A stretch of 64,000 nucleotides of DNA, taken from Escherichia phage JY01. The stretch is taken from sequence record OR995200.1. One strand, written 5' to 3'. This document shows, piece after piece, positions 22,972 to 40,006 of the stretch. Position 1 is the first letter of the stretch. Every line of letters starts with the position of its first letter. Under the pieces are notes generated by a model. It was given only the letters and a program-made list of their open reading frames with translations, made no database searches and was not told the origin of the DNA. The translations under genes and the position numbers were made by a program.

Positions 22972-23429
22972 TCAGCCTTATATTCAATAACAGGACATAC
23001 TTTAGCTTTACGGGCTTTTAAAAATTCGACGATAATAGATTTCTTGGGTTGAATAGGAGGTAAACCTTTATACGCCCTATCAATATTTTCTACATGTAAA
23101 GCATAATCCTTTTTCCATTTATAATCTTTATATTTTTCATGCAGTTGTGCAGGAATAACAAATGAACCAATAATAAGTAAAACAAGCAAAATGGCAAGTA
23201 TAAATGCTGATGGAATAAGAGTCCATAAACTACCAAAAATAAGCCATTTCTGCATGATTTCTGCACAGATAATAGTTAGACCTGCGAGTATAGTACATCC
23301 GAAAAAAGAAACGAAAAATGTAGGAATAACAACAGACCAAAAATACGCGCATAGTGTCTTAGGTCGTTGCCATTCATCGTTAAACAATTTGAATAATTTA
23401 TAGTGCCAAGAGTTTTCATTAATAATCAT
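22968..23429 (-). CDS. Hypothetical membrane protein
   Basis: 153-aa ORF with 3-4 predicted TM segments. Confidence 0.5.
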   Translation of the reverse strand: MIINENSWHYKLFKLFNDEWQRPKTLCAYFWSVVIPTFFVSFFGCTILAGLTIICAEIMQKWLIFGSLWTLIPSAFILAILLVLLIIGSFVIPAQLHEKYKDYKWKKDYALHVENIDRAYKGLPPIQPKKSIIVEFLKARKAKVCPVIEYKAE

Positions 23430-23431
23430 AA

Positions 23432-23953
23432 TTATCCTTTCATTGAAGGCGTAACGGTTGTTAAATACTTAATCATAGCTTCAGCTTCTGATTTTGATAA
23501 TGAAATTTCTTCATTGTTTTGACGAATAGAAATAAAATCCGGATGACGGTCACCACCAGCTTTTAAAACACACATATAAGTATCGACTTCGCCTTCAATA
23601 TTTGAAATGATTGAAGCAGTTCCGCATGAATGTGGTTTTTGATAAATCAATACAGCTTTTCTTCCACCGTTTGACTGTTCATAGGCTTTTAATACATCAA
23701 GCAAATCAGTTCTTTTATCAATAGCTAAAATGTTATTTTCATCTTCAATGTTAAATCCTTCGGATACTTCATAAAGTGTTACCCATAAATCACCGATGTC
23801 AATAACAGCATTTACTTTTCCACGACTTTCAAGAGTATGACAAATTTTCTTGATTTCGTCATAACTCATTTTAATAATATCATCTCCTTGACTAAGGAAG
23901 ATGTCATTTTTAAATTCAACACGAATTAAACCGCTTCCACTTGAAATAAACAT
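23432..23953 (-). CDS. Hypothetical protein, paralogue of 23960..24514
   Basis: 173-aa ORF; C-terminus SIRQ…SKSEAEAMIKYLTTVTPSM parallels the neighbour's SIRQ…TKDEAIALKTYLDSVIPTM. Confidence 0.5.
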   Translation of the reverse strand: MFISSGSGLIRVEFKNDIFLSQGDDIIKMSYDEIKKICHTLESRGKVNAVIDIGDLWVTLYEVSEGFNIEDENNILAIDKRTDLLDVLKAYEQSNGGRKAVLIYQKPHSCGTASIISNIEGEVDTYMCVLKAGGDRHPDFISIRQNNEEISLSKSEAEAMIKYLTTVTPSMKG

Positions 23954-26903: not shown

Positions 26904-27485
26904 CTAACCGAGCTTTTTAGTTAATTCGTTCCAGTGTTTTCTACACAAAGAAACATAAATTTCATCACCAATACAGATTTGATTACCTTCTTTAACTGGT
27001 GTTCCATCTTCCATTAATCGAGCTGTCATAATCGCTTTTTTGCCGCAATGACAAACTGCCTTTAGTTCAATAAGTTTATCTGCAATCGCCAAAAGTTCTT
27101 TAGAACCTTCAAACAATTTTCCAGCGAAATCAGTCCTTAATCCATAAGCCATAACAGGAACATTATATGTATCAACAATTCGGCTTAATTGGTGCACCTG
27201 TTCAGTTTTTAAAAACTGAGCTTCATCTACAAATACGCAATGAATATCTTTTTGTGCTTCAGCCCATTTATAGAACTCGAAAATATCCATATCATCTGTA
27301 ATAATATTCGCTTCCTGCTTAATTCCAATGCGAGAAACAACTTCACAGACAGAATCGCGAGTATCAATAGCAGGCTTAAGAACTAATACACCCATTCCAC
27401 GTTCTTTATAATTATGTGCAGCAGTCAAAAGAGAAGCAGATTTTCCAGCATTCATTGCTGCATAAGTAAAAATTAAACTCGCCAT
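26904..27485 (-). CDS. tk: Thymidine kinase
   Basis: 193-aa ORF with P-loop AMNAGKSASL and C-terminal zinc-ribbon cysteines. Confidence 0.92.
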   Translation of the reverse strand: MASLIFTYAAMNAGKSASLLTAAHNYKERGMGVLVLKPAIDTRDSVCEVVSRIGIKQEANIITDDMDIFEFYKWAEAQKDIHCVFVDEAQFLKTEQVHQLSRIVDTYNVPVMAYGLRTDFAGKLFEGSKELLAIADKLIELKAVCHCGKKAIMTARLMEDGTPVKEGNQICIGDEIYVSLCRKHWNELTKKLG

Positions 27486-27494
27486 ATCACCTTC

Positions 27495-27680
27495 TTAAAG
27501 CGTATTCACATAAGCTATTAATTCATTTTCTTTCTTATCAAACCGATCAGCAAATTCTTCCTGCTGTTCGGGAGATAGCGGGCCGTATTCATCATAAAAG
27601 GTGTTTGCTTCTGTATGCTCATCTAGAAGTTCATGGATAAGCTCAAACAATTTATCTTTTTGTTCTTTGCTTAGGCTCAC
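27495..27680 (-). CDS. Hypothetical acidic protein
   Basis: 61-aa ORF. Confidence 0.4.
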   Translation of the reverse strand: MSLSKEQKDKLFELIHELLDEHTEANTFYDEYGPLSPEQQEEFADRFDKKENELIAYVNTL

Positions 27681-27849
27681 AGTATGTCAATCCCCAAAAG
27701 TTTTAAAATGACTCGTTTCTGATTCATAACCGCTACGATTGAATGACCGTTGGGGTCTTTTTGACCTGATCCAATTATAAATCCTTTTTGCGCAGAAAGT
27801 TTAATCAAAACATCAAGTTCACGTAATAATTGATATTTTAAATCATCAT

Positions 27850-28077
27850 TCATTTTGGTTTACCTTCTTTAACGAAATCTGGATAAGGATAAAATCCCGA
27901 ATAAAATCCTTCACCTTTATGATTGATACATCCTTTATTAGAACAATAGCACCAATAATCGAAATCACAAGCCATTTCATCGTTGCATAAAGCAAAAACA
28001 ACCGGCCACTTACACTTTTCACAGTGGGCATTTTTAAGAATACTAGTTTGGCTCATAACCATGTAACCTTTAAGCAA
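27850..28077 (-). CDS. Hypothetical Cys-rich protein
   Basis: 75-aa ORF with many Cys/His; preferred over the overlapping 27846..28031 frame. Confidence 0.4.
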   Translation of the reverse strand: MLKGYMVMSQTSILKNAHCEKCKWPVVFALCNDEMACDFDYWCYCSNKGCINHKGEGFYSGFYPYPDFVKEGKPK

Positions 28078-28265
28078 TATTCTTCTACATGTTGTTTACG
28101 ACCTTTCTTATCAATAAAGGTATATTCAACGAATGCCCCAATGTAGTCTTTATCTACATCATGTGGACTATTAATTGGACATTTAGTACGGCAAATGCGT
28201 TCCCATTGACGAATAATTACTGCTTTGTTTTTAGGATCAAACGGATGTGGGTAATGCACTTTCAT
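28053..28265 (-). CDS. Hypothetical protein
   Basis: 70-aa ORF. Confidence 0.4.
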   Translation of the reverse strand: MKVHYPHPFDPKNKAVIIRQWERICRTKCPINSPHDVDKDYIGAFVEYTFIDKKGRKQHVEEYCLKVTWL

Positions 28266-28716
28266 AATCCACCACTATTAAATCAATATCAGGAGTAAAC
28301 ATGTCGATTAATTTAGAAACCTTATCCCAATCGCCGCCAGCAATACCACAACCTATGCGTGGAATGTAAATTACCGGTTTAAACAAAAGGGTTTCTGCCT
28401 GTAGATTTAATTCTATCATGCAGTTTACTAAAGCACCATAATCAAGATTAGGACCTGGTTCGTATTGCGTATACAGGTTATAGCATATACCAAATCCCGT
28501 AGGACTATGTTTAAAAACAATAGACATATCGCCTAATTTATCGCGAGAACCGTACTCAGTAGTGGTTTTATCTATTTCTAAAATTTTGGGATAGGCTCTG
28601 GCTAATTGACCCGCTACACCTGAACCCATAGTATGAAAACAATTGCACCCGTGCGCAATAATATTACCTTCAAGAAAGAGGGCGACAATATCGCCCTTGA
28701 TATATTTTACAATCAT
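28237..28716 (-). CDS. Macro-domain protein (putative ADP-ribose binding/hydrolase)
   Basis: 159-aa ORF with macrodomain-like motifs (HGCNC…GSGVAGQLA and GCGIAGGDW). Confidence 0.6.
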   Translation of the reverse strand: MIVKYIKGDIVALFLEGNIIAHGCNCFHTMGSGVAGQLARAYPKILEIDKTTTEYGSRDKLGDMSIVFKHSPTGFGICYNLYTQYEPGPNLDYGALVNCMIELNLQAETLLFKPVIYIPRIGCGIAGGDWDKVSKLIDMFTPDIDLIVVDYESALPTSV

Positions 28717-29054
28717 CTAGTACTCAATCCTCGATTATAAGAATCTACCAAACGGTCAACCATTGAATGACAAGCGGCTTTATCTTTCTCCTCCGCAACT
28801 GAACATTCTAAGGTATTCCACTTTTTAGCATATCGTTTTAACAATGTATCATTTTTGTATCTGCTTGATTTATCTCTTTCTCCGTCTTTATATGCATATA
28901 TTAATTTCTGCGCAAATTCAGCTTGGCATGCTTTATTTTTCCCGCAATAATCCGCTGCAGTACGGTTTACATACTCTCTAATTTCAGTATATGATGTATC
29001 TGCTAACGCAGAAAATGAAATTAATCCTATACATAAAACCAAAATTTTAGTCAT
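28713..29054 (-). CDS. Putative secreted protein (vs position)
   Basis: 113-aa ORF with N-terminal signal peptide (MTKILVLCIGLISFSALA) and 4 Cys. Confidence 0.5.
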   Translation of the reverse strand: MTKILVLCIGLISFSALADTSYTEIREYVNRTAADYCGKNKACQAEFAQKLIYAYKDGERDKSSRYKNDTLLKRYAKKWNTLECSVAEEKDKAACHSMVDRLVDSYNRGLSTR

Positions 29055-29592
29055 TTACTATTTCCAAAAGTTTATTATTTTTAAGGTAATTAGCCTTTTC
29101 TAGGACTTCAGAAGCATATTTAGAACCTGCTTTAACATTCCATCCCGAATTATAAGAGGATATTGCTTTTCTTATATCGCCCTTATGTATATTTAACCAA
29201 TAAGAAAGTTCAATGTACGCCCAGGAAGCTGAATTGGACCGTTTATTCAACATTCTTTTTATTTCAGCATCGGTCATATTATAACCAAGTTCCTTAACTC
29301 TTGCTCGCATAGTAGGCAAATAATTTTGGAACATTCCGTAGGCGTGATGCTTTGGTTTAGATTTTAAATTAACTCCGCCAGAGCTTTCTTGCCATAAAAT
29401 GGCTGCCATTATATGACCTAATCCGCTCTTGTGGATATTTTTGTGTGTTTTATATTTTCCATCCTTAGAAAATTGTTCCCCGAATTGATACGCGTAACGC
29501 ATGTTATCGAGTTGGACATTACTGAAAGTATGCTCGGAGCTATGTGCCATCATTGAAATGGCCAATAGACCAGCGAGTAGTGCTTTTCTCAT
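29047..29592 (-). CDS. Putative periplasmic lytic-transglycosylase-like protein (vs.1 position)
   Basis: 181-aa ORF with signal peptide and WQESSGG motif resembling the catalytic Glu-Ser region of lytic transglycosylases. Confidence 0.55.
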   Translation of the reverse strand: MRKALLAGLLAISMMAHSSEHTFSNVQLDNMRYAYQFGEQFSKDGKYKTHKNIHKSGLGHIMAAILWQESSGGVNLKSKPKHHAYGMFQNYLPTMRARVKELGYNMTDAEIKRMLNKRSNSASWAYIELSYWLNIHKGDIRKAISSYNSGWNVKAGSKYASEVLEKANYLKNNKLLEIVND

Positions 29593-29599
29593 GCTTACC

Positions 29600-30061
29600 T
29601 CATTGAGTTTTAATTACTGCTTTAGAAGCCTTTCCTGGTAAACGACGACTGTTGATAATTGCCATCCTGCATTGGAGTGACGGGTCTTTGAACTTCTCAT
29701 TAGGTTTACAAACTGTAAATCCAAGCCAAAGATTTCCATCTGTGATTTCTAAACGTCCAGGACGATATTCAACCCCATCAATAAAATCCTCGTCAATGTC
29801 AGGACGCGGAGGCATACTCAGGAATTCATTAACTTCTAAAACATGGTCTTTTATTTTGTGGAATAATTCAAAAACATATGTCTCATCAATCTCCCGTTGA
29901 ATTGCACGATCAAGAAGATGTTGAGAATATTTTAGATGAAACGATGAGACTCCTGCTGCTTTTGATGCCTCACGAATCTCATTGTTAATTTGACGAAACT
30001 CCGACTCAAAATGACGACGAAGCTTATTTCGACGGATAAAAACTTCTGTATTGATAGTCAT
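29600..30061 (-). CDS. regB: Endoribonuclease RegB
   Basis: 153-aa ORF recognised as T4 RegB (MTINTEVFIRRNKLRRHF…). Confidence 0.9.
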   Translation of the reverse strand: MTINTEVFIRRNKLRRHFESEFRQINNEIREASKAAGVSSFHLKYSQHLLDRAIQREIDETYVFELFHKIKDHVLEVNEFLSMPPRPDIDEDFIDGVEYRPGRLEITDGNLWLGFTVCKPNEKFKDPSLQCRMAIINSRRLPGKASKAVIKTQ

Positions 30062-30088
30062 GTTGTTCTCCTCTTAACTGATAGAAAA

Positions 30089-30118
30089 ATTATACCACAG
30101 TCAAGAGGAAAAGTAAAC
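30089..30118 (-). promoter_or_regulatory. Early promoter for regB
   Basis: Minus strand: GTTTAC, 17 nt, tgtgGTATAAT, about 28 nt upstream of regB ATG. Confidence 0.65.
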
Positions 30119-38984: not shown

Positions 38985-39060
38985 TGGTCGAGGCAGTAGG
39001 GATCGAACCTACGACCTAGGACTTAGAAGGTCCTTGCTCTTCCTTCTGAGCTATGCCCCG
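38985..39060 (-). tRNA. tRNA-Arg (anticodon UCU)
   Basis: 76-nt cloverleaf read by hand; anticodon loop CUUCUAA; T-loop GGTTCGATCC; CCA encoded. Confidence 0.8.
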
Positions 39061-39064
39061 TAAT

Positions 39065-39140
39065 TGGGGTGACCGATGGGAGTCGAACCCATGACTACGA
39101 GAATCACAATCTCGAGTTCTACCAACTGAACTACGGCCAC
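39065..39140 (-). tRNA. tRNA-His (anticodon GUG), no encoded G-1
   Basis: 76-nt cloverleaf GTGGCCG…; anticodon loop TTGTGAT; discriminator C; CCA encoded; 5' flanking base is U. Confidence 0.65.
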
Positions 39141-39254
39141 ATTAATACCTACTCCAACAATCAAGATGTCTTCACACGAAATTAAGAGAAGAGTGATCAG
39201 TTCAACCCCTATAATCGCGTCAAGTAGATATTAATGTGACAGTTGTCACAAATT

Positions 39255-39329
39255 TGGCGGACGTGATAGGATTCGAACCTATAACCAATCGCTTAACAGG
39301 CGATCGCTCTGCCATTGAGCTACACATCC
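39255..39329 (-). tRNA. tRNA-Asn (anticodon GUU)
   Basis: 75-nt cloverleaf GGATGTGTAGCTCAATGGCAGAGC…; anticodon loop CTGTTAA; CCA encoded. Confidence 0.75.
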
Positions 39330-39333
39330 AAAT

Positions 39334-39420
39334 TGGTGGGGAGTGATGGAGTCGAACCACCCGAGTCGCAATGACAATGAATTTACAGTCCACACCGCTA
39401 CCTCTACGGGATAACTCCCC
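39334..39420 (-). tRNA. tRNA-Tyr (anticodon GUA), long variable arm
   Basis: 87-nt class II cloverleaf; anticodon loop CTGTAAA; 3-bp D-stem; CCA encoded. Confidence 0.7.
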
Positions 39421-39433
39421 TTAATTCATAATT

Positions 39434-39508
39434 TGGTGGCCCTGGGTGGAATTGAACCACCATCTGGCGATTATGAGTCGCTTGCTTGAACCTTCCAGCT
39501 ACAGGGCC
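39434..39508 (-). tRNA. tRNA with CAU anticodon (Ile2 by T4 synteny, or Met)
   Basis: 75-nt cloverleaf; anticodon loop CTCATAA; lies 1 nt downstream of tRNA-Thr, as in the T4 Thr-Ile dimer. Confidence 0.7.
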
Positions 39509-39509
39509 T

Positions 39510-39585
39510 TGGTGCTGATTGACGGAATCGAACCGCCGACCTTCTCATTACAAGTGAGTTGCTCTACCTACTGAGCTAAATCAGC
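39510..39585 (-). tRNA. tRNA-Thr (anticodon UGU)
   Basis: 76-nt cloverleaf GCTGATTTAGCTCAGTAGGTAGAGC…; anticodon loop CTTGTAA; CCA encoded. Confidence 0.8.
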
Positions 39586-39590
39586 AAAAC

Positions 39591-39680
39591 TGGCGGAGGT
39601 GATAGGATTCGAACCTATGAATCGCCGGAGCGACTGCCGGTTTTCAAGACCGGTGCATTCAACCACTCTGCCACACCTCC
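39591..39680 (-). tRNA. tRNA-Ser (anticodon UGA), long variable arm
   Basis: 90-nt class II tRNA; anticodon stem CCGGT/ACCGG with loop CTTGAAA; CCA encoded. Confidence 0.75.
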
Positions 39681-39682
39681 AG

Positions 39683-39756
39683 TCTCCATACAAGGATTTG
39701 AACCTTGGACCTCCTGATCCCAAATCAGGCGCTCTACCAAACTGAGCTACACGGAG
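39683..39756 (-). tRNA. tRNA-Pro (anticodon UGG), CCA not encoded
   Basis: 74-nt cloverleaf; anticodon loop TTTGGGA; 2-nt spacer to tRNA-Ser (Pro-Ser dimer arrangement). Confidence 0.75.
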
Positions 39757-39766
39757 TAAATTAAAT

Positions 39767-39840
<74 letters not shown>

Positions 39841-39845
39841 AAATT

Positions 39846-39932
39846 TGGTGCGAGAAGTGGGACTCGAACCCACAAGGAAATCATTCCGCAGCATTTTAAG
39901 TGCTGTGCCTTTACCAATTTGACCATTCTCGC
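39846..39932 (-). tRNA. tRNA-Leu (anticodon UAA), long variable arm
   Basis: 87-nt class II tRNA; anticodon stem CAGCA/TGCTG with loop CTTAAAA; CCA encoded. Confidence 0.8.
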
Positions 39933-39933
39933 G

Positions 39934-40006
39934 CTGGGAATAAAGGACTCGAACCTTTGCATCCTGGAATCAAAATCCAGTGCCTTACCAACTTGGCTAA
40001 TTCCCA
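39934..40006 (-). tRNA. tRNA-Gln (anticodon UUG), CCA not encoded
   Basis: Starts TGGGAATTAGCCAAGTTGGTAAGGC with U1-A72; anticodon loop TTTTGAT; 1-nt spacer to tRNA-Leu (Gln-Leu dimer). Confidence 0.8.

Follow-up and report, generated by a model that had tools for sequence, protein, structure and literature searches.

A divergent allele of the T4 tk.4/adfM macrodomain gene with a predicted glutamine-type active site in Escherichia phage JY01

The 64,000-nucleotide stretch of Escherichia phage JY01 DNA analyzed here (OR995200.1; the window) carries at 28237..28716 on the minus strand a tk.4/adfM-type gene encoding a single-domain macrodomain protein of 159 residues (17.5 kDa, pI 4.9). We consider it likely that this gene, as an orthologue of T4 tk.4, strips ADP-ribose from DarT2-modified thymidines in phage single-stranded DNA and so lets replication proceed. 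Sequence and model show that the protein has a macro fold, that the motifs of its ADP-ribose pocket are intact and that its active site is of the Gln type; the gene occupies the orthologous position and is under purifying selection. The gene, its macrodomain identity and, for the T4 allele, the anti-DarTG2 role are already published or annotated; the remaining interest lies in the divergent allele, its cassette-like replacement and the Gln-type chemistry.

Gene and genomic context

The original prediction described a 159-residue ORF in a tk-regB accessory cluster, and the ORF listing gives exactly this frame, with an ATG start, between the genes for thymidine kinase (tk; PF00265; 26904-27485, minus strand) and RegB (PF10715; 29600-30061, minus strand). 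Three to four small minus-strand ORFs lie between tk and tk.4, and tk.4 is separated from regB by vs (28713-29054, minus strand) and vs.1, which encodes an SLT-domain protein (29047-29592, minus strand). The order tk, tk.1-3, tk.4, vs, vs.1, regB is that of T4. Megablast with 27400-30100 returned 749 phage records, the best being Yersinia phage phiD1 with 99.1% identity over the full length, and these matches identify the window as Tequatrovirus DNA. The same position between vs and tk.3, full-length homology and the tk.4 label used in other records (RB10 and ime09 name the window-type allele tk.4) make the gene, as judged by synteny and alignment, the orthologue of T4 tk.4.

Both ends of the gene overlap their neighbors. 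At 28713-28716 (minus strand) vs ends and tk.4 begins in a shared ATGA, an arrangement typical of translational coupling, and sequence comparison with T4 revealed a 29-nt overlap between the 3' end of tk.4 and the start of tk.3 (28237..28265, minus strand). A 13-nt deletion relative to T4 shifts the tk.4 stop codon and accounts for both this overlap and the four C-terminal residues that the window protein has in addition to those of T4 Tk.4. In some GenBank records tk.4 is annotated from an internal Met (130 aa; Shigella phage SHFML-26, KX130862, L007 1-393), which is an inconsistency of annotation and not a real truncation, as the full 159-codon frame is intact. Two plus-strand ORFs that overlap tk.4 (28089-28298 and 28633-28740) were treated as chance, being short and without annotation in the records examined, those of phage A2 and T4. 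The gene vs, whose 3' end shows close to 100% identity with T4 and which is coupled to tk.4 through the ATGA, encodes the valyl-tRNA synthetase modifier and was the T4 gene most depleted in minimal medium in the HIDEN-SEQ preprint (10.1101/2025.11.20.689424).

A scan for sigma-70-like promoters found none directly upstream of tk.4 and a total of 17 sites compared with 18.8 in shuffled sequence, and a search for MotA-box-like patterns similarly found 24 sites, where 19.2 are expected by chance, and none upstream of tk.4. The nearest sigma-70-like sites on the minus strand lie within vs.1 (29102-29074 and 29435-29408) and upstream of regB (30117-30089). Given that neither kind of site lies directly upstream, tk.4 is most simply assigned to the regB-vs early transcription unit and is probably co-transcribed with regB, vs.1 and vs. 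A GC-rich 8-bp hairpin with a T-rich stretch at 28679-28697 (tk.4 codons 7-13) is conserved in T4 and was flagged as terminator-like on both strands; it was rejected because it is not more stable than shuffled sequences (z of -0.92). With the sigma-70, MotA and hairpin scans all at chance level, an own promoter or regulatory RNA for tk.4 was also rejected.

Macrodomain fold and class

The glycine-rich motifs on which the macrodomain claim had been based, AHGCNCFHTMGSGVAGQLA and RIGCGIAGGDW, occur exactly in the ORF translation, and the claim is borne out by Pfam, phmmer and profile matches as well as by structural modeling. Residues 22-136 align to positions 2-117 of the 118-position Pfam Macro profile (PF01661; 116/118 positions covered), scoring 32 bits where the gathering cut-off is 22 (E 1.3e-7). 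The protein also matches PHROG 335 (E 1.2e-71), 801 homologues came up in a search of metagenome proteins (E<=1e-3), and 2790 phage records contain a tblastn match. These matches and homologue counts, taken with the dN/dS values given below, show that 28237..28716 is no chance ORF.

Among PDB sequences, phmmer matched BT1257 (3e-10), yeast Poa1p (2.4e-9), SCO6735 (1.1e-7), M. tuberculosis DarG (2.8e-5) and human TARG1 (0.011), and a profile built from 66 homologues matched BT1257 (2.4e-20), TARG1 and SCO6735 (both about 3e-16), Poa1p (2e-14), M. tuberculosis DarG (2.1e-11) and T. aquaticus DarG (9.4e-10). Structure prediction had been proposed as a check on the original claim, and an AlphaFold2 model from the 66-homologue alignment is confident (pLDDT 93.4, pTM 0.88), with the predicted three-layer α/β/α architecture of a macro fold. 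Its best PDB neighbors in Foldseek are all macrodomains, headed by TARG1, DarG, BT1257, Poa1p and SCO6735. On these alignments and this model, the protein is placed in the ALC1-like class of macrodomains (TARG1/DarG/Poa1p/SCO6735) and not with the MacroD, PARG or macroH2A types.

The motifs of a putative ADP-ribose pocket are present and invariant or nearly so in the family, namely the adenine-contacting Asp of KGD (D9), a first loop of the form N-x(5)-G-x-G-(V/I)-A (N25 and G31-S-G33-V-A35) and a second of the form G-x-G-x-x-G-G (G122-C-G124-I-A-G-G128). Loop 1 of this predicted pocket spans residues 22-35, HGCNCFHTMGSGVA (28612..28653, minus strand). The glycine-rich loop 2, residues 119-130, PRIGCGIAGGDW (28327..28362, minus strand), would bind phosphate, as the corresponding loop does in other macrodomains. 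Across 117 homologues the invariant residues are H22, G23, N25, C26, G33, A35, D49, N80, Y82, Q84, P119 and W130. The residue equivalent to N25 in PhiKZ gp104 is N23, and mutation of that residue (N23A) reduces the ADPr-DNA hydrolase activity of gp104 (PMC13309987).

Active site

The residue expected to define the chemistry is Q84, the last of the NLYTQ segment (residues 80-84; 28465..28479, minus strand), which is a glutamine in 117/117 family members examined. It aligns with the catalytic lysine of TARG1 (K84) and DarG (K80) and with the essential Gln85 of SCO6735, and A126 aligns with Asp-125 of TARG1, so that the catalytic dyad K84/D125 of human TARG1/OARD1 is replaced by Q84/A126. With these residues at the catalytic positions, the lysine chemistry of DarG and TARG1 cannot apply. 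Glutamine in place of this lysine and the absence of Asp-125 are the features of the SCO6735-type (Gln) subclass as defined in PMC9411070, to which the sequence would assign the window protein. SCO6735 (PDB 5E3B) and Bacteroides BT1257 (2AFC/2FG1) are likewise ALC1-like proteins with Gln in this position and show ~26% identity to the window protein, with SCO6735 aligning full-length at 3e-13.

SCO6735 efficiently cleaves DarT-made ADPr-thymidine in DNA and rescues from DarT toxicity (Hlousek-Kasun et al., PMC9411070), its Q85A/E mutants lose activity completely, and a water-mediated mechanism in which the glutamine positions the distal ribose has been proposed (PMC9411070). There are also differences between SCO6735 and the window protein. 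SCO6735 is a cellular protein, has Val-25 where the window protein has Gly-23, and possesses the DNA-positioning lysines K34 and K89 and a longer mobile loop, all of which the viral protein lacks. It is also basic (pI 9.7), in contrast to the acidic window protein (pI 4.9). We did not regard this acidity as a decisive argument against DNA binding because PhiKZ AdfM, a proven enzyme, has an equally low pI (5.05).

Relation to T4 AdfM, PhiKZ AdfM and DarG

The role suggested originally for this protein, counter-defense against DarTG-type systems, agrees with the phenotype of the T4 orthologue. The T4 sequence record X04567 lists tk.4 as ORF 60.5, the syntenic gene in T4 carries the annotation 'phosphatase; contains A1pp phosphatase motif', and window-type proteins are named 'macro domain protein', 'Poa1p-like family protein' or 'phosphatase' in other phage records. 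The DarTG2 resistance of T2 and T4 was known not to depend on AdfA or AdfN, from which a further factor was predicted (PMC11825919); T2 Tk.4 is 100% identical to T4 Tk.4. In the HIDEN-SEQ preprint of November 2025, tk.4 was the only significant hit from growing a transposon library of T4 on a host with DarTG2 (bioRxiv 10.1101/2025.11.20.689424). A clean T4 tk.4 knockout was sensitive to DarTG2, the gene was renamed adfM (anti-DarT factor Macrodomain), and removal of ADP-ribose from DNA was the mechanism inferred for T4 AdfM (10.1101/2025.11.20.689424).

The window protein shares with T4 Tk.4 its locus, domain, size and invariant pocket residues, including Q84, within a surrounding genome of 95-100% identity. 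BLASTP against T4 Tk.4 (NP_049723, 155 aa) aligned 155 aa at 59% identity (E 4e-71), the 41% of residues that differ falling mostly past residue 50. Loop 2 reads GCGIAGGDW in the window protein and GAGIGKGNW in T4 Tk.4, the window-type sequence being the family consensus. The anti-DarTG2 phenotype has been demonstrated only for the T4 allele; by analogy the window allele may be expected to have the same activity and to use the Gln-type mechanism.

DarG models are the only or best matches of the window protein in the PADLOC and NCBIfam libraries, with scores of 27.4 bits in PADLOC, from the macro part alone, and 27.6 bits for NCBIfam NF048014, whose cut-off is 250. DarG (T. aquaticus 5M31/5M3E; M. 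tuberculosis 5M3I) has the catalytic Lys80 in an F-P-T-K motif where the window protein has Q84, and it carries a C-terminal DarT-binding domain and is encoded next to darT, whereas the window protein is single-domain and no darT toxin gene is found near tk.4, its neighbors being vs and tk.3. We therefore rejected the idea of a true captured DarG, as the catalytic lysine and DarT-binding domain are both missing and the score is far under the equivalog cut-off. A bacterial homologue from Pelagimonas is also stand-alone, lying among housekeeping genes with no DarT gene nearby.

A second phage protein named AdfM, PhiKZ gp104 (Cell Rep 2026, PMC13309987), is like T4 Tk.4 a macrodomain that stands alone and acts against DarTG2, and its hydrolysis of ADPr-DNA has been proven in vitro (PMC13309987). 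It too is acidic and has the conserved Asn (N23). However, gp104 is a true DarG-type protein (E 9.4e-25 to M. tuberculosis DarG) with an FPTK motif and catalytic lysine, and in a pairwise alignment it matches the window protein only marginally (E 0.001 over 23 aa). On these profile and pairwise scores a shared lineage was rejected, and by the same sequence comparisons phages recruited the two AdfM proteins as analogues from separate branches within a single structural class. The name AdfM thus now covers two non-orthologous phage macrodomains, the Gln-type T4 Tk.4 and the Lys-type PhiKZ gp104. Since the T-even AdfM is of the Gln type (SCO6735-like) and not the DarG type, its chemistry is probably unlike that of the antitoxin it mimics.

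Substrate and function

The reading that we favor is of a stand-alone macrodomain enzyme that would be produced early in infection and whose pocket would bind ADP-ribosyl-thymidine on phage single-stranded DNA modified by the DarT2 of a host DarTG2 system. The N-glycosidic bond between ribose and thymine would be hydrolyzed by Q84 and a water molecule, with Q84 positioning the distal ribose in place of a lysine nucleophile, and release of ADP-ribose would restore replication in DarTG2 hosts. The gene would in effect be a phage-borne orphan antitoxin. Several points count against this account. For T4 the evidence is genetic and was reported in a preprint, and the window allele differs from T4 at 41% of residues, including those in loop 2. 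The lysine of DarG and TARG1, the aspartate of TARG1, and K34/K89 and the mobile loop of SCO6735 are all absent.

The enzyme might instead reverse ADP-ribosylation of RNA or protein, whether uracil-linked in RNA, Glu/Asp-linked in protein through the action of host defense transferases, or made by the phage's own Alt, ModA and ModB, whose modifications it would fine-tune, an alternative that we find improbable. Gln-type SCO6735 also hydrolyzes Glu-linked protein ADPr and uracil-ADPr RNA, TARG1, a top structural neighbor, has a broad substrate range, and tk.4 adjoins the RNA-directed early genes regB and vs. Against the phage's own marks as the target, the T4 Alt and Mod enzymes modify arginine, and cleavage of this linkage is not known for macrodomains of the TARG1/DarG class. 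No Alt or Mod gene lies in the tk.4 neighborhood, and for regulation of the phage's own protein ADP-ribosylation, the other role raised in the original prediction, no support was found. As to RNA, SCO6735 did not act on 2'-OH ADPr-RNA, and what PMC11833690 reports of its action on 5'-phosphate-linked ADPr is inconsistent within the paper. DarTG2 sensitivity is moreover the only reported tk.4 phenotype, with tk.4 the one significant hit in that screen (10.1101/2025.11.20.689424).

It is quite doubtful that the protein is a small-molecule hydrolase, acting as an ADP-ribose-1''-phosphate phosphatase (Poa1p-like) or O-acetyl-ADP-ribose deacetylase in nucleotide/NAD+ housekeeping or the degradation of ADPr-based immune signals. 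Yeast Poa1p does act on a small molecule, Appr1p, and some distant phage homologues adjoin NAD+-salvage genes, a hint that some branches of the family use small-molecule substrates, which also tells against the DNA substrate that we prefer. The historical 'phosphatase/A1pp' annotation points the same way but is a homology transfer, and a metabolite role leaves the DarTG2-specific phenotype of T4 Δtk.4 unexplained. Leaving aside the KptA/Tpt1-type RNA-repair route, which makes Appr1p, no source of this compound was identified. Mainly non-catalytic protection, by binding or blocking DarT2 or by sequestering ADP-ribosylated sites, is the least credible alternative: the SCO6735 mutant Q85A, although inactive as an enzyme, inhibits DarT in vitro and does so more strongly than mutants of DarG or TARG1 (PMC9411070), and the sharp allele replacement at tk.4 is the pattern expected of a protein-protein interface under conflict, but the invariance of all pocket residues, including Q84 and N25, in 117 homologues points to catalysis, and the C-terminal domain with which DarG binds DarT is missing from this single-domain protein of 159 residues.

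Allelic divergence at tk.4

Identity to T4 in 60-nt sliding windows is 95-100% through rI, tk, tk.3, vs, vs.1 and regB and falls sharply inside tk.4, being 47-62% at 28267-28561 and 73-83% at 28562-28681 before returning to 100% beyond. Pairwise alignment, sliding identity and the megablast pattern together delimit a divergent allele cassette at 28220..28680, whose boundary is sharp at the tk.3 start and graded within the 5' end of tk.4. The first ~50 codons are common to the T4 type (43/50 residues identical), and T4-type genomes align by megablast only to the 5' third of tk.4 (the first ~150 nt, 82-90%).

Otherwise near-identical Tequatrovirus genomes thus carry at least two deeply diverged tk.4 cassettes, the window type and the T4 type, and intermediate alleles at 72-82% also exist. 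By tblastn the window type (at least 90% identity) is found in 318 phage records and the T4 type in 224, with another 159 at 80-90%, making the window-type allele about as common as the T4 type in sequenced phages; this strongly diverged allele is carried by roughly half of sequenced T4-like phages. Nei-Gojobori dN/dS was 0.05-0.15 in six pairwise comparisons, all within the window allele class, as synonymous sites between the window and T4 alleles are saturated at ~50% nucleotide identity. These values indicate that the window-type allele is under purifying selection and that its function is maintained.

One interpretation is that tk.4 is an allele-swapping hotspot in an arms race, with each allele neutralizing a different spectrum of DarT2 variants (or of other thymine/uracil ADP-ribosylating toxins) or escaping host factors that recognize the macrodomain. 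We regard this as unlikely, although if true it would also establish Lys-independent, Gln/water-based de-ADP-ribosylation in a virus.

Other features of the region and of distant homologues

A second T4-divergent island lies just downstream of tk.4/tk.3, at 27456-28040, where the tk.1-tk.2 region aligns to T4 at 0-52% identity. Here a 61-aa ORF at 27495-27680 corresponds to DUF7438, and an extra Cys-rich ORF of 70 aa (27850-28062, minus strand) matches PF23895, 'Phage zinc binding domain' (E 2.6e-29), and is absent between tk.2 and tk.3 of T4. Elsewhere in the window, ~960 nt at 22973-23934 are unaligned to T4 (blastn HSPs end at 22972 and resume at 23935), at the site of the T4 mobD homing endonuclease. 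Eleven tRNA genes (Arg, His, Asn, Tyr, Met/CAU, Thr, Ser, Pro, Gly, Leu and Gln) are clustered at 38985-40006 on the minus strand, compared with 9 in the homologous cluster of the T2 record, so tRNA content is variable in these phages.

In other phage groups, distant homologues of the macrodomain protein (30-38% identity; for example in Vibrio phages Cilsick, Noelle and Athena and Acinetobacter phage vB_AbaM_B09_Aci01-1) adjoin genes for ribose-phosphate pyrophosphokinase or nicotinamide phosphoribosyltransferase, which suggests a link there between the macrodomain and NAD+ salvage.
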